A stretch of 64,000 bases of DNA from a bacterium (GTDB taxonomy: Bacteria > Patescibacteriota > Microgenomatia > Woykebacterales > RBG-16-39-9b). The DNA is taken from positions 793,702 through 857,701 of the forward strand of contig JAUYID010000009.1 in NCBI GenBank assembly GCA_030704665.1. The letters are read 5' to 3'. Below the pieces are notes generated by a model. It did not search any database. It worked only from the letters and a program-made list of their open reading frames with translations, and was not told where the DNA came from. Below, in pieces: positions 30,993 through 41,407 of this stretch. How positions within the stretch are numbered: position 1 is the stretch's first letter; the number at the start of each line of letters is the position of its first letter. The translations under genes were made by a program, and so were the position numbers.

Positions 30993-31457
30993 TTAGTTTA
31001 GTTCCACTTTGTATTGCAAGGCTTCGGCGAGATGCGAGGGGGTAATTTTTTCTTTGGCATCAAGGTCAGCAATCGTTCGCGAGACTTTAAGAATACGGTA
31101 AAAACTGCGGGCGGAAAGATTCATTTTGTTGATCGCCGCCGAAATGAGTTCTCGACACTCTGGCTCAAGACGACAAAATTCTTTGACTTGTCTCGCAGTC
31201 ATCTCGGCGTTAGAAACGATACCAGTACTCTTGAAACGTTTTTCTTGCTCGTTTCTGGCTAGTTGCACTCTTTTCCGGATTTGGGCCGAGCTTTCACCAG
31301 CTGGTATATCAAGCAAATCTTTGGTTTTCACAGCCGGAACACTGATGTGCAAGTCAATACGGTCGAGAATCGGCCCGGAAATTCTCTTTTGATAGCGGGT
31401 TACTTGTCCGGGCAAACAGGTGCATTCTTTGGTTGTATCACCAAAGAAACCGCAGGG
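30993..31457 (-). pseudogene. comM: comM (Mg-chelatase-like YifB/ComM) 3' portion, separated from its 5' portion by the inserted element
   Basis: Minus-strand translation PCGFFGDTTKECTCLPGQVTRYQKRISGPILDRIDLHISVPAV...AEALQYK matches the ComM C-terminal region. It is in the same reading frame as the upstream recombinase gene (ORF-track 30993-33284). Confidence 0.8.
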
Positions 31458-31478
31458 ATGTGGCTTTACATAAAGACC
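31456..31478. repeat. attL-type junction: core GG (31456-31457) plus element arm with TACATAAAGACC
   Basis: By direct reading, the host comM sequence ends at 31455, then the core GG, then ATGTGGCTTTACATAAAGACC. Confidence 0.55.
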
Positions 31479-33149
31479 TACAGAGGCTCCAGAGTCGTAT
31501 TTATAAACAATCTCGACCCGACCTCTGAAAATAAACACCTTATCAATAATCCTTCCGACCATTTCCTTCCGAACCATGGGTTCAGTCGCCGCTTCAAACA
31601 TTTCAAGTAACTGCCTTAAAGTTGAAAGAACATCCTTTCGTTTTACCTGGTCGTTAATTAGAAATTGTATTTTTTCAACTTCTTGTTCTAACAGAGCTCT
31701 TTCATTTTTTTGTACTTCGTACCGCCTATCAAACACATCGCGAATTATTCCTCCATCCTCAAACAGTTCTACCAACCTATCAACTTTACTATCGTATTCC
31801 TGTAGGTGTTTTTGGGCAACCTTAAAATGAGCCGTTAGTGATCCAGTTGATTGTGCTTCCTCCAAAGACAATTCGTTACTAACATCCTCCTGTCGGAGCT
31901 CTTTCAACCTGGTTTTCAATTTTGTGAGCACGAGATGTTCCAGTTTTGGGGCCGCCAAAAGATGTCTTCTACAAGTATTACCTCTGACGTAACTACTATC
32001 AATGAAGTCGCTTCTTACATAAACCTGACCATTCGGTTTCTTAGCCCTTCTGGTTTTCAGATAGGCCCTCTTTTGGCAATCACCGCACCATATTTTTCCA
32101 GCCAGCAATGAATCCGAAGCAAGTTGTCTACCAGTAACTTTAGATCTTGATTTCACCCTGTCTTGAATCTTATTGAAAGTAGCCTCATCAATAATACTCG
32201 GAACGTTTTTAGCTTCTTGTTGTACCCACCTATCAGGAGCAGTAAATACTCGTTTTTGTTTGCCGCTAACTGTTTTTCCTTGTTTGTATTTACTTCCGAG
32301 TTTCCGACCCCATCTCACTTTCCCAACCAAAGCGGGGTTGGTTAAAATGTTTTTTATTGTCGCAGACGACCAACTCCCTGGGCCCAGTTTACCTGTCGGG
32401 GAAGGGATTTTATCTCCAACAAGACTAAAAGCAATTTTACGAAAACTTCCACTAGAGAGGTATTCATCAACAATACGTTTAGCCACAACCGCTTTTGAAG
32501 GAATTAACTCAAAATGCCAATCGTACACCTGCTTACCATCAGCAAGAGTTTCAATCTTTGGTACTTTTTTAAGCCAAAAGGGAGCGAACACCATCTTGCC
32601 TCTTTCGGCTAATCCTCTGAATCCAGACCTAACTCTTTCACCCCGTGTTACGTTCTCTTGTTGGTCTTGGACTCCCGCTAAGGCGGCTGTCATCTGTTGG
32701 ACATAATTACCACCCCAGTAGTAATCAGTAGGTGTAATTGGTTCAACCGCAACGTTTCTCATGTAAACTTGGATGTTTGCAGTTTGAGCTAATCTCCTGT
32801 GAAACCTAAGAATTAAATCTGCTTCCCTTGCTAACCTTGATGAGTGGTAAACAAGTACGATGTCAAACTTTCGGAGTAAGCTATTTAGCGGTTTTACATC
32901 CTCCAGTAAACTTGCGGCTGCGGGTCTGTCTTCAAACTCAATATCACCGAATACCCCTGGCTCGATGTAGGGCTCAACAAAAGCCCAACCTCTCTGTTCA
33001 CAAATATCTTTTGCCCATTTTACTTGGTCAAAAATTGAAACTTTTTCCTCGGCAGCTTGGTCTAACGTGCTAACACGGGCATAAACCACCGCTTTTAAGG
33101 TCGGGGCTTGTATTGTCGGTCTGTAGCCTAAATTTAGTCCATCCTCCAT
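31456..33149 (-). CDS. large serine recombinase (integrase); ORF continues without a stop across attL into the comM 3' portion
   Basis: Has the N-terminal resolvase catalytic motif AVVYARVSTLDQ, a recombinase domain, a zinc ribbon (CGDCQ...C..C) and a coiled-coil. The recombinase part is about 560 aa with a likely start at MEDGLNLG. Confidence 0.8.
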
Positions 33150-33173
33150 CTGTCTTTGCTCCTTATTAACTAT

Positions 33174-33186
33174 GTGGCGGCCACAC
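33174..33186. repeat. 13-bp perfect palindrome TGTGGCGGCCACA (copy 1), between the AlpA-like gene and the recombinase start
   Basis: A GC-rich palindrome in an AT-rich context. An identical copy lies at 39155-39167. Confidence 0.5.
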
Positions 33187-33190
33187 AGCT

Positions 33191-33367
33191 TTAGTGTTGG
33201 GACATAAATTCCAACAAGTCGTCTTTCTTGAATCGGAGAGTCCGACCGTGTTTGTAACCCTTGAGTCCTTTTTTCAGCCACCAACGTCGGAGTGTTTCGT
33301 AATGAACACCCAACATGGTAGCGGCTTCTCGAAGGGTTAGGAATTCTTTTTCGACTGGTTTAGACAT
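33191..33367 (-). CDS. AlpA/Xis-like HTH_17 small DNA-binding protein (candidate excision/regulatory factor)
   Basis: 58-aa ORF not in the track: MSKPVEKEFLTLREAATMLGVHYETLRRWWLKKGLKGYKHGRTLRFKKDDLLEFMSQH, which matches the AlpA / excisionase HTH pattern. It sits immediately upstream of the integrase. Confidence 0.6.
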   Translation of the reverse strand: MSKPVEKEFLTLREAATMLGVHYETLRRWWLKKGLKGYKHGRTLRFKKDDLLEFMSQH

Positions 33368-33395
33368 TTTGATTACTCCTTAATTAAATAATACA

Positions 33396-33590
33396 TCACT
33401 TGTCAATGCTGTTATCTACTTGTTTACTAGCCTCAAGAGCCGACAGAGCTAGCTGTGTGAAATTTCGTTTTCCGACCTGATTAAAATTATCAACCACGTC
33501 TTGAGACGAGCAGACAGAACACCCACACCCAGATTTTGCCAAGTCGTCAAGTGTCTGCCGCTTCTTATCTACCAAAGTCCCTCGTCTCAT
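33396..33590 (-). CDS. hypothetical small protein (Cys-rich)
   Basis: 64 aa containing CGCSVC. It overlaps the upstream NTPase gene by 4 nt, which is operon-like. Confidence 0.35.
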   Translation of the reverse strand: MRRGTLVDKKRQTLDDLAKSGCGCSVCSSQDVVDNFNQVGKRNFTQLALSALEASKQVDNSIDK

Positions 33591-35062
33591 AACCCCCTCC
33601 TGCTTAACTCTTGGTACGAAGTCTCTAGTTCTTGACCGATTAAATTACGATTTGGATTATCATCAGGAGCGGCTTCATATTGTTCTAACAAAGTGTTAAT
33701 CCTGGACTGTAACTCCTCAACCGATAATTTTTTAACGTCAAAGTTTACCCCACCATGCCACTCACTATATTGTTTTGACGTTTCCTTACCTGTCGAAACA
33801 TTGGGTCGGGTAGTAGGGTAAGTTAGTTTTTCTCTTTTGTTTAGAGGGTTTTCCTCCTGATAAATCAGCCCAGAAGTCTCTAAAACAGGAATGATTTGCT
33901 GTCTTAGCTGCCAGTCCGCCAAGTGTCGCTGGTAAACTTCAAAGTGCTTTTTCAGGATTTCGTTTCTTGATACCCCAAGTTTTACCCCACCCCCTAACTC
34001 ACTATATTTATCGGTATAGGCGGGGACGATCACTTCCTTAAAAAGGTTAAAGACATAAGGTGGTAAGTTTAACTCCTGGCTTTCCGAAATCGAATCCCAA
34101 AGCTTGAATGCTTCCCGAACATCGTCCTCGTTGGCAACAAGTAATCCGTTTTGTCTTTCCCTGAACCACAAGTTAAGCAACGCAAAGGTTTTTATCAGGT
34201 TGATGATGCGGCCGACATCCCGTTGGTGGCGGGGTTTGTAAATCTTAATCCTGTCGGAAAGCAGTTTTTGAATCAGTTGCGGCGAAGCGATCTTGACGTC
34301 TTTGATCCCAGCTTGCTTGATAGCCTTGATACGGTCTTTTAGCATTTTTCTGACTGGGTCGAGGTCTAGGCTGCTTTGGTACTCGGTAACGTTTGATTCT
34401 CGTTTAATCCGCTCCGATATAGCTTCACGGATTTTTTCTTGATTCGTTTCTGGTGAAAGTAACAGGAACCTCGTGGTTTCTTGCTCATCGAGGTTTAGCC
34501 CAACTGTGCAAAAGATGACCACAGGGAAACCGATCAATTTTATATTCTTTGTCCTTAAACCCTGCCGTTGATTCTTGTCCGTAATTTTCAGTTCGATTAC
34601 CTTTTTGTCGTGTGAAAGTAGCGGCCTTAAATGTTCCAACAGTTGCGTGTGGGGTTGGTCTAGGAATATCAAAATTTTACGTGACAAGTCAGCCCTGTAA
34701 CTTTTAGACTCTGGGTCGTAAGAGCTTTGATCGTGAAAGAAAGCTGTTGGTGAACAATAACCAACTTCAACCACATCCTCCTCTGGAAACAATTTGGCAA
34801 TCTCCATCGGGATAAAGCTTTTGCCGCTTGAGGACGGTGCGTTGAAGGAGATGTTTAGCTGAGCGTCTTCCGTGTAACAAGAGAGCTGGGTCAGGAAAGT
34901 AATAAGCTTGTTTACCTCGTCCTTTTTAATCGTCAGACCAAGTATTTTTATCAGTTCTTGGCTAGTGATGGGCCCAAACTGGGACACGTCAATTTGTTCC
35001 TCTTGCTTCTGCTCAACCTCTTGTTCGGCTTTATCAATCAGATCAAAGGCTTCGTCGCTCAT
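33587..35062 (-). CDS. P-loop NTPase, phage/plasmid primase-helicase (SF3/D5-like) C-terminal-type
   Basis: 491 aa with a Walker A motif FNAPSSSGKS and a downstream Walker B-like IFLDQ. It is in an operon with the CHC2 zinc-finger protein. Confidence 0.55.
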   Translation of the reverse strand: MSDEAFDLIDKAEQEVEQKQEEQIDVSQFGPITSQELIKILGLTIKKDEVNKLITFLTQLSCYTEDAQLNISFNAPSSSGKSFIPMEIAKLFPEEDVVEVGYCSPTAFFHDQSSYDPESKSYRADLSRKILIFLDQPHTQLLEHLRPLLSHDKKVIELKITDKNQRQGLRTKNIKLIGFPVVIFCTVGLNLDEQETTRFLLLSPETNQEKIREAISERIKRESNVTEYQSSLDLDPVRKMLKDRIKAIKQAGIKDVKIASPQLIQKLLSDRIKIYKPRHQRDVGRIINLIKTFALLNLWFRERQNGLLVANEDDVREAFKLWDSISESQELNLPPYVFNLFKEVIVPAYTDKYSELGGGVKLGVSRNEILKKHFEVYQRHLADWQLRQQIIPVLETSGLIYQEENPLNKREKLTYPTTRPNVSTGKETSKQYSEWHGGVNFDVKKLSVEELQSRINTLLEQYEAAPDDNPNRNLIGQELETSYQELSRRGL

Positions 35063-35610
35063 GCCAGCCTCCTAACCGCGACCTTGAACTCCAAGTTTTC
35101 CAACCTCATCAGTAGATCAAGGCTGTCTCCACCCTGGTTGCAGCCGAAGCAGTACCAAGAGTTGTTGTGGGTGTAAATTGTGAAGGATGGGGTTTTTTCT
35201 TGGTGAAGTGGGCAAAGTCCCACAAATCTACTTCTGCTCACTTTTCTCAGTTTTCCAGCGAAAAGTTCTTCTATGGGGATTTGTCGGGCGGTTTCAACTT
35301 TCCTTTCCCAATCTTTGTTCTCACCTTTGTTGAGAAGTAGCATGGCACGATCAATGCTTTTACGTTCTTTTTTGATCCTGGCTAGCCATGAGGCGGTTCG
35401 ATAGGTCGCTATCCTAGTAAGGAACCAACTAACGAACTCATCATACTTTTGGTAGCTTCTTTTTGCGGCGGCGACTTTCAAGTCCAGCAGGGCTTGGGTT
35501 TTTTCCTCATCCTCATTCAGACTCCAGGCCTTTTCATTCAGGACAGGAACGGCGTCTTTACCAAAGACTTCGACCGCTTCCAACAAGGAGACTTTATTAC
35601 TTTCCATCAC
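35059..35610 (-). CDS. CHC2-type (DnaG-like) zinc-finger protein, replication initiation module
   Basis: 183 aa. The C-terminal CPLHQEKTPSFTIYTHNNSWYCFGCNQGGDSLDLLM matches the DnaG zinc-binding domain CPFH-EKTPSF...CFGCG-GG. The finger is unusually C-terminal. Confidence 0.6.
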   Translation of the reverse strand: MMESNKVSLLEAVEVFGKDAVPVLNEKAWSLNEDEEKTQALLDLKVAAAKRSYQKYDEFVSWFLTRIATYRTASWLARIKKERKSIDRAMLLLNKGENKDWERKVETARQIPIEELFAGKLRKVSRSRFVGLCPLHQEKTPSFTIYTHNNSWYCFGCNQGGDSLDLLMRLENLEFKVAVRRLA

Positions 35611-35797
35611 CGTCTCCTTCCTCAGAGTTTGGGACTAGAACATAACCCTTGCCTCCACAGCCTTGGCAGATTTTTGAACCAAACTTGACCGTACCGAAGC
35701 CATTGCAAACCACACACCGAAACGGGACGAACTTTGGTCTAACTTGGACGTTTTCAGGGTTGTCGTTATTCTGTCTGTCCATCTTTTCCTCCAACAA
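35597..35797 (-). CDS. small zinc-ribbon protein
   Basis: 66 aa with CVVC...CQGC. It is the first gene of the leftward operon. Confidence 0.4.
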   Translation of the reverse strand: MLEEKMDRQNNDNPENVQVRPKFVPFRCVVCNGFGTVKFGSKICQGCGGKGYVLVPNSEEGDGDGK

Positions 35798-35946
35798 AAA
35801 AACAGGCCTAAAATTCTCATTTTTATTTTCATTCTTATTACTTGAGAATTTTTCGGTCTGCCTTTGGCAAACTGTGGGGGGATTTACGAGCCCTTGTCCT
35901 CTTTATTTATTTTTACTTTTATAAGTATACCATAGTGTCGCCATCC

Positions 35947-35975
35947 TTGCTTATGCTTGGTAGAAGTGCGATAAT
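35947..35975 (+). promoter_or_regulatory. sigma70-like promoter (TTGCTT-17-GATAAT) for the thermonuclease gene, short leader
   Basis: The -35 is at 35947-35952 and the -10 at 35970-35975. The ATG is at 35987 with no SD, so the transcript is probably near-leaderless. Confidence 0.35.
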
Positions 35976-35986
35976 CTGGCCATCTT

Positions 35987-36886
35987 ATGCCAAAAATTAA
36001 CGCCGAGGAAATAAGAAAACTGTTTGAAGGTAAAAAGAAATTCTTTACTATCCCTATGGCCATAATCTTGGGTCTAGGTTTACTTCCAATCACAATCGGG
36101 TTAGGTATCGGCTACTTAGCTTACAAAAAGATTCCCAACACTACCCAAAGAAATGTTGCCCTGGGAGTCATTGCTTTAGTTACTTTGGGAGCCACCTTTG
36201 CTTGGTTTAACATGTCCTCCACCGAGCCTGAACCTCAACCTAGCCAACAAACAACACAATCAAATGAAACCAAAGAGAAAGCAAAGATTGAGAATGTCTT
36301 TAAGGTCACTAAGGTAGTTGACGGCGACACTATTGAAATTGAAGGTGGGAAACACGTCCGCTACATCGGGATTGATACTCCAGAAACAGTTGATCCCAGA
36401 AAAGAAGTCCAATGCTTTGGCCAGGAAGCCTCCGACAAAAACAAAGAGATGGTCGAAGGGAAAGAAGTTAGGCTTGAGAAAGATGTTTCCGAAACTGACA
36501 AATACGACCGACTCCTCCGTTACGTTTATGTTGGCGATACTTTTGTTAATGACAGCCTTGTTAGGCAAGGTTACGCTAGAGCTTCGTCTTACCCACCAGA
36601 CGTAAAACACCAAGACCAGTTCACCGAAGCAGAGAAGGAGGCTAGGGAAAACGATCGAGGCCTGTGGTCAGAATGTGAGAAAAAAGAGGAAGCAGCACCC
36701 CCAACAACAACCCCACCGCCAACAACTAGTGGGAATTGTGATCCTTCCTACCCTGATGTTTGTATTCCGAAGTACCCACCTGACCTAGACTGCGGCGACA
36801 TTACTTACAGGAAGTTTAAGGTCTTACCTCCTGACCCACATGGGTTTGACGGAAAGGACAACGACGGGGTCGGTTGTGAAAGTTGA
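35987..36886 (+). CDS. membrane-anchored secreted thermonuclease (SNase-like) with C-terminal Excalibur Ca-binding domain
   Basis: 299 aa with a TM helix. The SNase core is VVDGDTIEI...RYIGIDTPE...RLLRYVY and the C-terminal Excalibur motif is DGKDNDGVGCE. Confidence 0.75.
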   Translation: MPKINAEEIRKLFEGKKKFFTIPMAIILGLGLLPITIGLGIGYLAYKKIPNTTQRNVALGVIALVTLGATFAWFNMSSTEPEPQPSQQTTQSNETKEKAKIENVFKVTKVVDGDTIEIEGGKHVRYIGIDTPETVDPRKEVQCFGQEASDKNKEMVEGKEVRLEKDVSETDKYDRLLRYVYVGDTFVNDSLVRQGYARASSYPPDVKHQDQFTEAEKEARENDRGLWSECEKKEEAAPPTTTPPPTTSGNCDPSYPDVCIPKYPPDLDCGDITYRKFKVLPPDPHGFDGKDNDGVGCES

Positions 36887-37197
36887 TGGATTGGGGAATT
36901 TTTTTAATCGTCTTATTCTTTGGTTGGATAATAATAGCCTTCATTAACGACTCAAGATTTTCCAAAGATCATAAAATTCTAAGTAAGCTAACGATAGTAA
37001 TTGTGGGTATTGCTGCCCTTGTAATAGGTTTGGCTTGGGCAGAGGAGTCCCCACGAACTCCAACAAGAACTAGAAGTACCACACCTTACATTCAACAATC
37101 AGAACCAAGTGCACTCTGTCGAGATGGAACATTAAGTTACAGCTCCAATCGGCGGGGAACTTGCTCCCATCATGGCGGAGTAAGTGTTTGGTACTAA
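36883..37197 (+). CDS. DUF3761-domain membrane protein
   Basis: 104 aa with 2 TM helices. The C-terminal CRDGTLSYSSNRRGTCSHHGGV matches the DUF3761 signature. Confidence 0.55.
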   Translation: MMDWGIFLIVLFFGWIIIAFINDSRFSKDHKILSKLTIVIVGIAALVIGLAWAEESPRTPTRTRSTTPYIQQSEPSALCRDGTLSYSSNRRGTCSHHGGVSVWY

Positions 37198-37210
37198 TTA
37201 AGGAAATACT

Positions 37211-38311
37211 ATGACTGACGATGAGATTTTGAAATTAAGAAAAGAATACAAACTCCACGAAGTCGTTGAAGACAGACTGGTGAAGTTGTTTAAGGAACTT
37301 TCTCCAACGAACTACACCTTGAAAGAAGGGATTGGCCTTACAAGCGGCCGCACCGACACAAGCCACTATATCGGAGGCGGAAAAATAATTCACGTTGAGG
37401 TAATAGCCTCCGCCAACATGGTTGCTAAGGATTTACTTAATCTCCACCAGAGTGTCGCCGACGGTAAGGTTGTTGTGTTGATGGATGAGGAAATTGATCC
37501 AACAGTAACCAAGGAGTATTTTTCGGATCATGCCACCGACAGGTTTCCCAGACTTTCAATCAGCGAAGTTCTGGACGAGGACAAGAAAGAGGCTGTTCTT
37601 GTAAAGCTAGCCGACATTGTCCAGGAAATTGACAAAACCACCGTTAAGTTCAAAAACGAATCACAGAAAAAGTTTGACCAATTCCTCAAGGACTTGAACC
37701 GACAAGGAGAGTTGATAACCTATGACTTCGGGTTTTTCCCTAGAAAAAATTTGGGGGTTTTCCAGAAACTCTCGGACGCAGAAAAACTCTATCACGAGCT
37801 AGACCCACTTGGATTTTCCGCCGCCGCAGGTCTTCATAGAGGGTATGGTTTATCGTGGGAGTTCGGGAACGACGGTAAGTTTTTGCGGTTAGGATACTCT
37901 GACAAGGACAACAACTTGATCCCCTTTGTCTCTGTTGGAGACTACGGTGAGGTAATTCACACCAGCTCCTACCACAAGGAGGGCTTTACCGAAATTCATA
38001 AACCTACACTCCTAAGCTTGTTGAATCCCGTAGTTGAATTTTACAAAGAGCTAGTCAAAAAGAAAGGCTACAAAGGAATGGTGGATGTAATCGCACACTT
38101 TAGCGGTTTCGAAGGTCTGAAGTGGGTAACTACCAATGACCCCGCCGCACTAATAATTAGAGGTAAAGCCTTCTACAGCGATGAAATTACTTGTCCAGTA
38201 TTCTCAATTACAGCAGAGGATTTGCAGAAGCCTGAGAAAGTCCAAAGTTTAATTGGTGAGATGCTCCTAGTCTTGGAGAGAAACAGCAATAAAATTCCTT
38301 GGAGCAGGTAG
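37211..38311 (+). CDS. hypothetical protein (element cargo, unknown function)
   Basis: 366 aa with a good SD (aaggaaatactATG). No domain recognised. Confidence 0.5.
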   Translation: MTDDEILKLRKEYKLHEVVEDRLVKLFKELSPTNYTLKEGIGLTSGRTDTSHYIGGGKIIHVEVIASANMVAKDLLNLHQSVADGKVVVLMDEEIDPTVTKEYFSDHATDRFPRLSISEVLDEDKKEAVLVKLADIVQEIDKTTVKFKNESQKKFDQFLKDLNRQGELITYDFGFFPRKNLGVFQKLSDAEKLYHELDPLGFSAAAGLHRGYGLSWEFGNDGKFLRLGYSDKDNNLIPFVSVGDYGEVIHTSSYHKEGFTEIHKPTLLSLLNPVVEFYKELVKKKGYKGMVDVIAHFSGFEGLKWVTTNDPAALIIRGKAFYSDEITCPVFSITAEDLQKPEKVQSLIGEMLLVLERNSNKIPWSR

Positions 38312-38397
38312 TATTCAGCACCTGCTATAATAAGTCAAACTGCCAGAATTACCTTACAAGCAAGTTAAAAGCTTGGTGTAAGTAGCGTAGCTACATT

Positions 38398-39021
38398 ATG
38401 AGACTAAAGATATTACTGGTGATTTTGGGTTCTCTGCTTCTTGCCTCTGGAATCTATCTCGGAATAAATAAATTTATACTTCAACCAAAAGAAAAAAGCC
38501 CTGTTGCTTCTGTTGTGGAAACCAAAGTGGCGACTGAGTCTGCCGAGCCAAAACCCGAAGGAAAGAAGGAGGACGCAAAAGCTCCAACAGGGGAAGTTTC
38601 GGGTGCGACTACAAATACTGTCCAGCTCCCAACACAACAGAATACACCTCCACTATCAGTACCAGATGAATCAGGCAAGATCGCTACTCTTAACAGCTTA
38701 ATTGAGAAACTAGTCGGTTTGGCTGTAAAAATATGGGCGGAGGACGAAAAAATTAAAGCAACTACTCAAGGTTGGTTTGCTGCTCTGGAAAATTGTAATT
38801 CCGATCCAATAATTCCCTATGCTGACTGCGTTGAACTAAAAAACACTTATTACTCAGCACTTCTAAACATATCCAATGCTGCAAGAAAGAGTTATTTGGC
38901 TGATTATCGCAATTACGAGGCCCAGGCTAACCAAATAAAGGCTTCGTGCTCCTCAGTCTGTCAAACTATTTGGAATGACTACATCCAAGCACTTCAAAAG
39001 GGTGGTATTCCTCAACCTTAA
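38398..39021 (+). CDS. hypothetical membrane-anchored protein
   Basis: 207 aa with an N-terminal TM helix, a charged linker and a Cys-containing C-terminal domain. Confidence 0.45.
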   Translation: MRLKILLVILGSLLLASGIYLGINKFILQPKEKSPVASVVETKVATESAEPKPEGKKEDAKAPTGEVSGATTNTVQLPTQQNTPPLSVPDESGKIATLNSLIEKLVGLAVKIWAEDEKIKATTQGWFAALENCNSDPIIPYADCVELKNTYYSALLNISNAARKSYLADYRNYEAQANQIKASCSSVCQTIWNDYIQALQKGGIPQP

Positions 39022-39154
39022 AACACTAAGCTGACCAAATACACCACTCCACCAATACAAACAGTTTTACCAGTCAGACAGGTTCGGCTGTGGACTAGAG
39101 ATGGCTAATTATGTGGTGTCCGCCGACCAACATCGTTAATCCTTATCCCTTGTG

Positions 39155-39167
39155 TGGCGGCCACATA
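39155..39167. repeat. 13-bp perfect palindrome TGTGGCGGCCACA (copy 2), between convergent genes downstream of terS
   Basis: Identical to 33174-33186. Confidence 0.5.
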
Positions 39168-39293
39168 TGGTTTAACCACCTTGACCAGGGAATTAGTAAA
39201 ATTTATATCGCGGATTTCTGTGGCACTTAACGGTTATATTTATTTTGTAACAAAGGGTGTGGTGGGGGTAGTTCGGGACTAACTGACTTGGTC

Positions 39294-39746
39294 TTAATTC
39301 ATCTTGGCCAACACTTGTCTCGTGTTTTCTTGTGTTTCGGCTAGTATCTGCTTTAACTCCTCAATAGTCTTACCCTCCAGCTCTTTGTGAAACTCTAAGT
39401 TAGCGTTGAGGTTTAAGTTCCTAGAGGCTGGGAAGCGGTCTTTTAGTTTGTTGACCATTTCGATTGCTTGCAAGGCGACGCTTGGTTTGGCTTGTCGGGC
39501 GTTCTTGAGACCTGCTTCAATTATCTGTCTGGTGGATTCATCAACATAAGTATCACTCAAACCCGCTCCTTCAAGCTGTTGTCGGATCGCTGTCAAGACG
39601 TGAGGTCTACCAAGATTTTTGTAGGCTTCGTTGTTGGCCTTCGTAATAGAGTACCCAGCCTTGCGAGCCGCCAGGCTTCCGTTGCCGTTAGCTTCACCGA
39701 CGTAGTATTTAACGAATTTTTCCTGCTTTAGTGTCAGCTTTTTCAT
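39294..39746 (-). CDS. phage terminase small subunit (Terminase_2 family)
   Basis: LTLKQEKFVKYYVGEANGNGSLAARKAGYS matches the terS (PF03592-type) N-terminal HTH LTPKQE-FC-EY...NATQAA-RAGYS. No terminase large subunit is present in the window. Confidence 0.7.
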   Translation of the reverse strand: MKKLTLKQEKFVKYYVGEANGNGSLAARKAGYSITKANNEAYKNLGRPHVLTAIRQQLEGAGLSDTYVDESTRQIIEAGLKNARQAKPSVALQAIEMVNKLKDRFPASRNLNLNANLEFHKELEGKTIEELKQILAETQENTRQVLAKMN

Positions 39747-39927
39747 ATTTAATCTTTTTGCATGGCCTTGCAACTTACCGCCTGGCAGGAAGTTAAGGAA
39801 CTTTACAACAGCCAGTCAAATTTCTACCCATATATAGTATAACTGACAAAGAATATAGTGAGTTAGATGGTGGAGTAAACAGATTTTAGGTTCAATAATA
39901 TAGTGAGTGGGGTGGTGGGGTAAACTT

Positions 39928-40287
39928 TTAGTTAGATTTTTCGACTTGCCAGTCCCCACCTTTAGTGTCGTAAATCACACAGTAACGTCCTTCGAAAGTA
40001 ACCGCCTTACCGCATTCCTGGCTAGAAATCGAAACGTAGCCGCCATTGGGAAACTCCATCTCAACAATTCTCTTATCCTCAACTGTTACTGCCAAGGTGT
40101 AGCAATTATCATTGTTTGGATTGTGAACCACGCAGACTCTTTGGTACTCAGTACCATCCCACCAAGGCTTATCGTAACTGATTCCAAAAGGCCACCAATG
40201 AAAAAAGAAAGCACCAATCAAGTAGAGGATTATTAGTCCCACTACTCCACCGCCTACTTCGTTTGTATGATTCTCGTCGTTTTCCAA
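39928..40287 (-). CDS. hypothetical membrane protein
   Basis: 119 aa with one TM helix and a Cys-containing C-terminal domain. It is the last gene inside the element's right end. Confidence 0.4.
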   Translation of the reverse strand: MENDENHTNEVGGGVVGLIILYLIGAFFFHWWPFGISYDKPWWDGTEYQRVCVVHNPNNDNCYTLAVTVEDKRIVEMEFPNGGYVSISSQECGKAVTFEGRYCVIYDTKGGDWQVEKSN

Positions 40288-40331
40288 TTAAACCTCCCTA
40301 GTCAATTATAACGCTTTTTAGGTGTCGGGAT

Positions 40332-40354
40332 GGTCTTTATGTATATCCTTAAGG
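40332..40354. repeat. attR-type junction: element arm GGTCTTTATGTATATCCTTAA plus core GG (40353-40354)
   Basis: This is the inverted counterpart of the left arm. The TTA at 40349-40351 is the reverse complement of a TAA that terminates the comM 5' fragment. Confidence 0.55.
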
Positions 40355-41407
40355 ACAAGGATTCGCCGCTGCAATCAAGACAAATTTGGCCGGAAAAGTC
40401 ACGTTGGTCGCTGCCCTCGACACCGTCACAAACCCATCTTCGAGAGGCTGGCGCAGTGCCTCGAGAACATTTCTCGGAAACTCCGGGAACTCATCAAGAA
40501 AAAGTACGCCGCGGTGTGACTGCGATATTTCTCCTGGTTTGGGATTGGCTCCACCACCAATGATACCCACACTACTCGCGGTGTGATGGGGACTACGAAA
40601 CTGTCTTTTTGTGACTAAACCACCGTTGACTCCGCCTAGAACAGAGAAGATTTTAGTAACTTCCACTGCTTCCGAAAAAGTCAAACGAGGCAGTATCGAA
40701 ACAAAAGTTCGTGCCAGTAGCGTCTTACCCGCCCCTGGTGGTCCTTTGAGTAGAACGTTGTGACCACCAGCAGCTGCAATCTCCAGTGCTCGTTTGGCTT
40801 GTTCCTGTCCTTTGACCTCTTTCATATCTAGTTCGAACTCTTCCTCAGGAGCAAAATCAAACTTTCTTGGTTTAAACGGGTTGATGGGTGAGACAGCAGT
40901 AAAATGATCAAAAACCTCCCGGATATTTTTCACTGGGAGTATTTTTACCTTCTCAACGACAGAAGCTTCAATTGCATTTTCGGTCGGGAGTATCAGAGAA
41001 TCAAAATTTTTTTCTTTGGCTAGTAGTGAGAGAAGCAGAGCTCCCTTGGTTGAGTTGACTGAGCCGTCAAGCGAAAGCTCACCAAAAATTAAGGTCTTGG
41101 CAATATCAGCTTCAAGTTGACCCGAAGAAAGCAAAATCCCCAAAGCAATTGGCAGGTCAAAACTTGGACCTTCCTTGGGCAAATCAGCTGGAGCAAGGTT
41201 GACCGTAATGCGTTTAGCGGGGAAATCAGCACCAACGTTTTTCAGAGCGGCCCGGACCCTCTCGCGAGACTCCTCAACCGCCTTGTCCGGCAAACCAACG
41301 ATTGTGAATGAGGGTAGCCCTTGAGAAGCAATATCAACTTCAATTGTTACCGGCACTGCTTCCAGGCCAACTAGAGAACCGGAGTGGATTTTGGATAGCA
41401 TTGCCAA
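40349..41407 (-). pseudogene. comM: comM (Mg-chelatase-like YifB/ComM) 5' portion, truncated by the insertion; ends NPCP followed by an element-derived TAA
   Basis: 352 aa with N-terminal Lon-like and ChlI AAA+ domains (Walker [18 protein letters not shown]). It ends exactly where the ComM zinc-finger PCPCG motif should continue. Confidence 0.85.

Follow-up and report, generated by a model that had tools for sequence, protein, structure and literature searches.

The window analysed here is a stretch of 64,000 nucleotides from a bacterium of the Patescibacteriota (Woykebacterales; contig JAUYID010000009.1 of assembly GCA_030704665.1), in which the gene comM/yifB is interrupted by an integrated element of 8,897 bp, measured core to core (31457..40353). 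The open reading frame (ORF) at 30993-33149 on the minus strand encodes a large serine recombinase (LSR) that is fused in frame to the last 153 codons of comM/yifB; these codons and the following stop (30993..31454, minus strand) are host DNA. The 5' fragment of comM/yifB is situated nine kb upstream on the same strand as the LSR gene (40349-41401), matches ChlI and positions 1-160 of the Mg_chelatase profile, and codes for 350 aa that end with NPCP, followed by a TAA stop codon supplied by the element. The G+C content is 43.3% in the element and 43.4% in the whole window.

In-silico excision restores comM exactly. The rebuilt ComM of 503 aa covers positions 1-499 of the 499 positions of TIGR00368 (YifB) in one stretch with 608 bits, and it shares 70-73% identity over 99-100% of the length with uninterrupted homologues of 500-503 aa, of which the named ones belong to Candidatus Woykebacteria. 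As judged from this match, the host is a Woykebacteria-like member of the Microgenomates within the Candidate Phyla Radiation (CPR). The gene comM is uninterrupted in most relatives of the host, and the motif NPCPCG[FY] occurs in 115 of the 120 best ComM homologues.

The recombinase reading frame in the integrated state

The integrated-state ORF (30993..33149, minus strand) comprises LSR residues 1-565 and ComM residues 351-503 and ends on the stop of comM itself. According to Pfam, the domains Resolvase, Recombinase and Zn_ribbon_recom are found at residues 20-412 of the chimera, and the C-terminal part of Mg_chelatase together with Mg_chelatase_C at residues 538-714. An earlier reading made from the sequence alone had given the fusion product a length of 763 aa, and the frame 30993-33284 (minus strand) is open for 763 codons from a TTG at 33284. 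Because this TTG overlaps the upstream HTH_17 gene and the ATG at 33149 (MEDGLNLGY...) agrees with the N-termini of homologues, the product has most likely 718 aa in the integrated state and 565 aa in the free state.

The LSR proper (31455..33149, minus strand, 565 aa) consists of the Resolvase domain with the catalytic residues R25 and S27, the Recombinase domain, and a zinc ribbon with coiled coil. The resolvase catalytic domain PF00239 is matched with E=2.6e-13 and contains the catalytic serine, PF07508 and PF13408 are each found above their own cut-off, and R25, S27 and T28 (YARVSTLDQ) are invariant across the LSR clade. The best full-length relative in the PDB is SprA of SPbeta, to whose residues 212-505 the LSR aligns; the alignment reaches 30-40 residues short of both C-termini. 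The best NCBIfam matches, CcrB and XisF, are both far below cut-off. In an AlphaFold2 model, long helices are seen at residues 400-520 and the LSR core fold finishes in a beta hairpin at residues 535-549, followed by a region of low confidence at 562-618, which includes the extension described below and the first ~55 tail residues, and by a confident helical domain at 620-712.

The last 14 codons of the LSR proper (31455..31496, minus strand) form a C-terminal extension, DSGASVGLYVKPHP, which is missing from a sister clade of recombinases. It is composed of a G/S/T-rich linker and of codons that double as one arm of the attachment site. Among related elements the linker part is rich in G/S/T/E/N, poorly conserved and saturated with substitutions. 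The seven codons of the arm vary chiefly at third positions, with entropies of 0.25/0.47/1.09 at codon positions 1/2/3.

Attachment sites and the stop codon beyond the crossover

At the left junction the minus strand reads ...gta aag cca cat CC/c tgc ggt ttc (VKPHP/CGF; the slash marks the end of the core), with the core CC at 31457-31456. This attL site (31435..31478, minus strand) consists of the P arm (31458-31478), the core (31456-31457) and the B' arm (31435-31455), and the peptide of the chimera that spans it includes ...LYVKPHPCGFFGDTTK. At the other end of the element, the comM 5' fragment ends with aat cct tgt CC/t TAA gga tat aca taa aga cc, the core CC being at 40354-40353. Here, attR (40332..40375, minus strand) is made up of the B arm (40355-40375), the core (40353-40354) and the P' arm (40332-40352). 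The TAA of the P' arm (40349..40351, minus strand) occupies positions +2 to +4 after the core; in the integrated element it terminates the comM 5' fragment, and in the circular one it would terminate the LSR.

Swapping the arms at CC rebuilds attP as ggtctttatgtaaagccacat-CC-ttaaggatatacataaagacc, i.e., 21+CC+21 nucleotides, in full ggtctttatgtaaagccacatCCttaaggatatacataaagacc, in which the LSR frame reads KPHP followed by the stop. The corresponding attB, in full gcggcgaatccttgtCCctgcggtttctttgg, contains ...gcg aat cct tgt CCc tgc ggt ttc (AANPCPCGF). These results bear out four statements of the sequence-only reading, namely that the recombinase gene has no stop of its own and reads through attL into the 3' part of comM, that the far end of the element supplies a TAA (40351-40349) after the NPCP of the comM 5' fragment, that the free recombinase would end with KPHP on the same TAA, as the rebuilt attP predicts and as is seen in a relative that ends NVNPCP-TAA (see below), and that attB restores comM as NPCPCGF in the 503-aa YifB. 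In any other frame the integrated enzyme would acquire a tail of only 5 or 18 residues.

The attP site has the properties of a serine-integrase attachment site, i.e., a length of ~44 bp, an imperfect dyad and a non-palindromic 2-bp core. The arms of attP in the window form an imperfect inverted repeat with 16/21 matching positions, and in seven elements the match between P and the reverse complement of P' around CC amounts to 15-18/21, compared with only 6-9/21 for B against the reverse complement of B' and 4-10/21 for P against B. Near the core, the P arm (AAyCCnyryCC) resembles the B arm (AAyCCnTGyCC). Such a likeness is expected because one protein domain would read both sites, and it follows that the same frame is open in both. 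Promoter and terminator scans, a tRNA search and an Rfam search added nothing at the junctions.

Conservation of the arrangement among related elements

When homologues were searched with the 565-aa LSR part, two groups of proteins were obtained. One group consists of ten LSR-ComM chimeras with 47-53% identity from Woesebacteria, Woykebacteria and Parcubacteria bins, eight of them with 714-724 aa and two cut at 622-623 aa. The other group comprises ~40 proteins of 514-541 aa (one a 448-aa fragment) that end with ...INYRI and a stop. This end aligns with ...EIVYKY of the window protein, beyond which the fused clade carries an extension of 13-14 residues. A scan of the genome collection found only 8 loci, one of them a new fused example.

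On the contigs that were fetched and read at their junctions, 15 distinct elements in all (the window and 14 others) lack an LSR stop of their own and run in frame into P-x-P/CG[FY]. Their LSRs are 27-91% identical, and they are distributed over several CPR lineages and over assemblies from unrelated projects and assemblers. The arrangement extends to distant members such as L024 (37% identity), whose 29-residue extension ends ...GLNGLIGKPCP/CGF, and L027 (protein P0095, 27% identity) with ...NNVHPHP/CGY. The P' arm is known for seven cases, i.e., the window, L003, L008, L009, L017, L027 and the attP of L010, and in 7/7 of them a stop codon is found at +2 to +4 after CC, six times TAA and once TAG (L027). 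The +1 base of P', the wobble position of the last Pro codon, is variable, and so are the mirror-image positions of the P arm. Since these positions vary while the stop stays, the conserved P' pattern looks like a working stop codon and not merely like a conserved binding site.

The extension points in the same direction. Frame 0 is free of stops in 15/15 elements, compared with stops in frame +1 in 11/15 and in frame +2 in 14/15, while the chance of each shuffled extension being stop-free is ~0.5. Extension lengths of 13, 14, 18 and 29 codons occur, with differences always of whole codons. As far as can be read from these sequences, the frame through attP is clearly being kept.

Independent of these comparisons, we noticed how public records annotate these proteins (P0001, P0003, P0225): the chimeras are called 'recombinase family protein' or 'Competence protein ComM', the name given to the 350-aa fragment is 'YifB family Mg chelatase-like AAA ATPase', and the interruption is not flagged in any of these records. 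A candidate for an LSR with an internal deletion, L032, was dropped because the scaffold has a run of N in place of the missing part.

The codon at 31458-31460 and its equivalents in relatives replace the first Cys of the ComM C-P-C...C-x-C cluster. The residue found there is His or Cys in most members inspected, with exceptions including Gln (L008, L032) and Tyr (L009). The chimera might retain a metal site with four ligands; a constraint at the DNA level (Y-R-N) would account for the pattern equally well.

A free attP form

An exhaustive search of representatives found P0059, a 168-aa fragment ending ...NVNPCP on contig L010, which is a k141 assembly contig of 1,153 bp found in 3 samples. 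The 3' end of its LSR gene reads ...aat cct tgt ccc TAA gga tat aca taa aga cc, and sixty bases past this TAA follows a homologue (54% identity) of the window ORF 39928-40287. L010 is an intact attP, and its LSR ends on the P' stop as predicted from the window. P0059 is over 168 residues 89% identical to P0004, an integrated, fused LSR of a Woykebacteria genome, and because of this identity one sub-lineage shows both states, integrated and with intact attP. With a k-mer of 141, the 11-13-nt similarity between P and B arms cannot have given rise to a chimeric join. A profile of the last 165 LSR residues that was searched for more free-form ends returned only P0059, and scans of IMG/VR for a degenerate attP pattern and for LSR relatives gave no match.

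Host origin of the tail and mobility

The LSRs of L003 and L007 are 88% identical and their tails 59%; for L014 and L015 the LSRs are 91% identical and the tails 53% over the 17 tail residues available. Since similar LSRs bear dissimilar tails, these comparisons identify the tail as host DNA and the elements as mobile between hosts, with a chimera formed anew in each host. An element-borne ComM tail was considered and rejected, because the attP of L010 has no tail and the tails track hosts and not LSRs. The cargo also varies among copies and includes restriction-modification genes, Vsr, a nuclease and, in L027, an extra tyrosine integrase (PF00589; L027:8038-8949). This 9.6-kb element has two recombinases in consequence, plus a SpoVG-like gene.

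Two further observations concern comM itself. In L017 the comM 5' fragment (L017:813-1136) has an in-frame deletion of residues 38-278 of 350 (240 codons), with no N runs, and NPCP is changed to NPYP; this comM is irreversibly dead, while the LSR-tail ORF is intact. In other contigs a second partial comM 3' copy starting HISLRLLETDKLVG is present (L003:17885-18262, L005:8643-9020 and L012:17840-18196). It is found 5.7 kb downstream of the LSR-ComM' fusion and is 79% identical to the fused tail, and the two comM 3' copies flank response-regulator, histidine-kinase and MacAB-like ABC genes. It looks like a second island that duplicated the target 3' end; no integrase was seen there.

Unfused relatives at the same comM site

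The sister LSR clade (514-541 aa, own stop after ...INYRI) sits in comM at the same NPCPCG site. Apart from fusions to ComM, no homologue extends past the KPHP position, and the unfused sister clade stops 14 residues before it; the sequence-only reading had named recombinases reaching well beyond KPHP as a ground for its refutation, and it withstands this check. In L029 the recombinase gene has the same orientation as in the fused elements and its own stop, ~390 bp separate this stop from the junction, and the P arm (LNNIYPYP/CGY) is located outside the LSR ORF. In L018-L022 the sister-clade LSR is oriented opposite to comM. As a side observation, sister-clade insertions (L018, L019, L020-L022, L029), which occur in both orientations, sometimes end the comM fragment as NPCPCG followed by a stop. 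As these sequences show, insertions of several LSR clades cluster at one hot spot in CPR genomes, the NPCPCG-coding site of comM. Because the sister clade uses the same site with its own stop before a separate P arm, the architecture of the window looks like a compaction, by which the loss of the spacer would have brought the P arm into the ORF.

Gene content of the element

Next to the LSR gene, at a distance of 41 nt upstream, the element carries an HTH_17 excisionase-like gene (33191..33367, minus strand), whose product is a candidate for a regulator or directionality factor. In L006, L007, L008, L009 and L027, too, the gene directly upstream of the LSR is of the HTH_17 or MerR type. A putative replication module (33587..35610, minus strand) is formed by two proteins, one with a CHC2 primase zinc finger (35059-35610) and one of 491 aa (33587-35062). 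The latter has no family match and was not identified by PDB and PADLOC searches but has counterparts of 471-507 aa in related elements. The terminase small subunit TerS (Terminase_2) is encoded at 39294..39773 (minus strand) and, as cargo, a membrane-anchored staphylococcal-nuclease-like protein at 35987..36886 (plus strand). A 119-aa ORF (39928..40287, minus strand) is the first gene inside the attR end and starts 61 nt after the shared TAA; its homologue in L010 starts 60 nt after the TAA. Pfam and PHROGs gave no matches to capsid, tail or large terminase genes in the element. In the window none of the element ORFs is disrupted, and the two att arms and the two comM halves are likewise intact.

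Because HTH_17, primase zinc finger and TerS are present without structural genes, the element is by its gene content mobile and satellite-like, and it is organised like a phage satellite or a small integrative replicon. Moreover, the 119-aa ORF and terS are on the comM strand straight after the shared TAA, and the window scan found no terminator-like site between. For these reasons, both genes could be driven by the comM promoter in the integrated state and be part of the LSR operon in the circle.

Discussion

The data suggest that an 8.9-kb element was inserted by its own LSR into the NPCP/CG-coding segment of comM/yifB. In this element family attP overlaps the 3' end of the LSR gene in such a way that the P half-site also codes for the last ~7 residues, the crossover CC represents positions 1-2 of the last sense codon (Pro), and the only stop (TAA/TAG) is placed in the P' half-site beyond the crossover. 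The circle would then yield a 565-aa enzyme, which would integrate the element. Integration shifts the stop 8.9 kb away, where it ends the truncated ComM, and joins the LSR in frame to the comM tail of 153 codons. The integrated copy can make only the 718-aa chimera, and since no other recombinase form is made, excision would have to be performed by the chimera, which is presumed to be expressed and excision-competent; the HTH_17 protein is probably an accessory factor for this reaction. The G/S/T/E-rich extension might serve as a linker that allows the enzyme to tolerate the tail. We consider it probable that this architecture is a maintained design, in which selection keeps the P arm translated as far as the P' stop and the tail is tolerated via the flexible linker. 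We think it more likely that the ComM tail is a passenger which the enzyme tolerates than that it serves as a dedicated regulator.

Several points weigh against this interpretation. The 15 elements share ancestry and do not represent 15 origins, such that the significance suggested by the conservation statistics is an upper bound. The periodicity of three bases seen in the P arm was rejected as proof of translation or of selection at the protein level, because the P arm mimics the coding B arm. The structural model is weak, with a mean pLDDT (predicted local distance difference test) of 61 and an alignment of 9 sequences. A free form of the window element was not found, one short attP contig represents the whole family, and a tandem array, not a circle, could be the source of the attP in L010. 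Finally, the chimera could be inactive and this copy immobile.

A more far-reaching explanation would be an adaptive switch, in which, once the element is integrated, the ComM tail alters how stable the integrase is, how it oligomerises or in which direction it acts. The tail might, for example, damp spontaneous excision or be needed together with the HTH_17 protein, and the enzyme would thereby 'know' its state. It would be in line with such a role that no lineage has a stop in the extension, though many codons are one mutation away from a stop; however, selection for correct termination of the free form alone also accounts for the missing stops. The linker rich in G/S/T/E/N resembles a designed tether, an own stop ahead of attP is viable, as seen in the sister clade, and the residue in place of the first Cys of ComM is His/Cys in most members inspected. 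In L017 the fused tail is intact despite the irreversible comM 5' deletion, but this is a single case. The tails differ by 40-50% between hosts of near-identical LSRs, which means that any interaction must be generic. A precedent is provided by mycobacteriophage BPs and its relatives with integration-dependent immunity, in which attP is located inside the repressor gene and integration changes the C-terminus of the repressor (PMC4557955, PMC3694055). As in BPs, attP of the window element is in the 3' part of an element gene and the free and integrated C-termini differ; however, the BPs repressor is shortened and loses a degradation tag, whereas the integrase in the window is lengthened by 153 host residues. 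On balance, we regard an adaptive switch as possible but clearly the less likely explanation. Slightly more doubtful is the specific version with two integrase isoforms written by their own reaction, of which the short one from the circle would integrate, and the long chimera would be altered in stability, assembly or directionality; here, the tail might dock on the orphaned ComM N-fragment.

Returning to the maintained design with a tolerated tail, three other explanations have to be weighed against it. The sequence-only reading had compared the locus with developmental excisions of the skin/SpoIVCA or nifD type, proposing that integration and excision toggle both the recombinase C-terminus and comM integrity. 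The toggle is real in the sequence; the developmental analogy is not supported in view of the replication and packaging genes, the decoupled identities of LSRs and tails, and the free attP. The competence gene comK and comM-type genes are targets of 'active lysogeny' elements, and a host-domesticated switch with programmed excision at a set moment would restore comM exactly. Regulated gene integrity has been discussed in this context (PMC7192596). Nevertheless, replication and packaging genes are kept, close LSRs in hosts with distant ComM tails indicate horizontal movement, the cargo differs between copies, a free attP form exists, and comM is uninterrupted in most host relatives, which makes a domesticated switch very improbable. 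The copy in the window could also be a dead remnant that no longer excises, with the fusion ORF as a by-product awaiting decay. No circle of this exact element and no IMG/VR relatives were found, and decay of comM has begun in L017; on the other hand, the element ORFs, att arms and comM halves are all intact in the window and the LSR keeps the invariant catalytic and zinc-binding residues, hence we judge a remnant to be improbable, if somewhat less so than domestication. Least can be said for an artefact of assembly or sequencing, or for reading frames that agree by chance: at a single origin the prior chance of a shared frame is 1 in 3, but the same layout is found in 15 assemblies from unrelated projects and assemblers, with the stop at the same P' position and all indels in frame, and such an explanation can practically be neglected.

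The arrangement shares single features with several known systems. In phage lambda, the sib element, through which int is subject to retroregulation, is a 3' control element that spans attP and is disconnected by integration. A 3' element controlling int output across attP is thus common to both cases; sib, however, acts in RNA processing, whereas here a stop codon is disconnected and the effect would be on the polypeptide. Excision also restores an interrupted host gene in the case of skin/SpoIVCA, SPbeta/SprA and the nifD/fdxN elements (XisA/XisF), and SpoIVCA, SprA and XisF are serine recombinases as well. Those excisions are programmed and timed by the host, and the skin and nif elements are immobile, in contrast to the mobile, replicative family described here, for which no developmental cue is evident and which does not show the host-fixed, vertical inheritance of skin- and nif-type elements. 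Crossovers inside a recombinase ORF, by which the enzyme's own reaction rewrites its gene, are known from tyrosine integrases of the archaeal SSV1 type (fuselloviruses), where attP is inside the int gene (PMC8371274), and from Riemerella RAP44-like phages with attP at nucleotides 25-43 of the tyrosine int gene (PMC12169736). In these tyrosine recombinases the split removes a real part of the protein, whereas in the serine recombinase of the window, which belongs to a bacterial (CPR) host, only the stop is separated and the enzyme stays whole and gains a host tail.

Insertion of LSR elements into comM-like genes is already known. Prophages of the Wolbachia sr1WO type adjoin a 'Mg chelatase-related' gene (PMC5447182), and such insertions are probably frequent in isolate genomes as well. 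Durrant et al., who surveyed LSRs, found that 12.4% of the site-specific ones hit a single gene family, 'ATP-dependent protease' (bioRxiv 10.1101/2021.11.05.467528); this family is possibly comM. The window element shares with such comM-targeting elements the LSR of the Resolvase/Recombinase/zinc-ribbon type, the palindrome-like att site of ~44 bp with a 2-bp core, the insertion in a conserved AAA+ gene and the integrase gene at the element edge. It differs in that the integrase ORF crosses attP, with its stop in the P' arm and an in-frame chimera of integrase and host protein as the result. Our literature search, which is necessarily incomplete, retrieved no report of a serine integrase with its stop codon across attP and an in-frame host chimera, and a serine integrase with the stop across its own crossover appears to be undescribed. 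With regard to gene content, phage-inducible chromosomal islands and other satellites are similar in their size of ~9 kb, integrase, excisionase-like HTH (helix-turn-helix) gene, primase module and small terminase and in the lack of virion genes; they differ by having usually a tyrosine integrase, and in the present case the host belongs to the CPR, no helper phage is known and there was no IMG/VR match. The element may belong to a class of phage satellites or integrative replicons that has not been described before in Patescibacteria.

What emerges is a family of small elements, satellite-like and integrative, in CPR/Patescibacteria, whose mobile-element biology is poorly known. For annotation they represent a warning, because protein-length filters in integrase mining would mis-size the chimeras. 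Serine integrases are valued for their simple control of direction, which is set by the geometry of attP/attB versus attL/attR and by a directionality factor. The present family of integrases would change its own polypeptide at each reaction, and it lends itself as a natural test for an influence of a C-terminal appendage on direction or stability and suggests a design idea for self-limiting integrase tools. If the reading with two isoforms were true, it would amount to a protein-level memory of integration, a control principle that has not been described for serine integrases.

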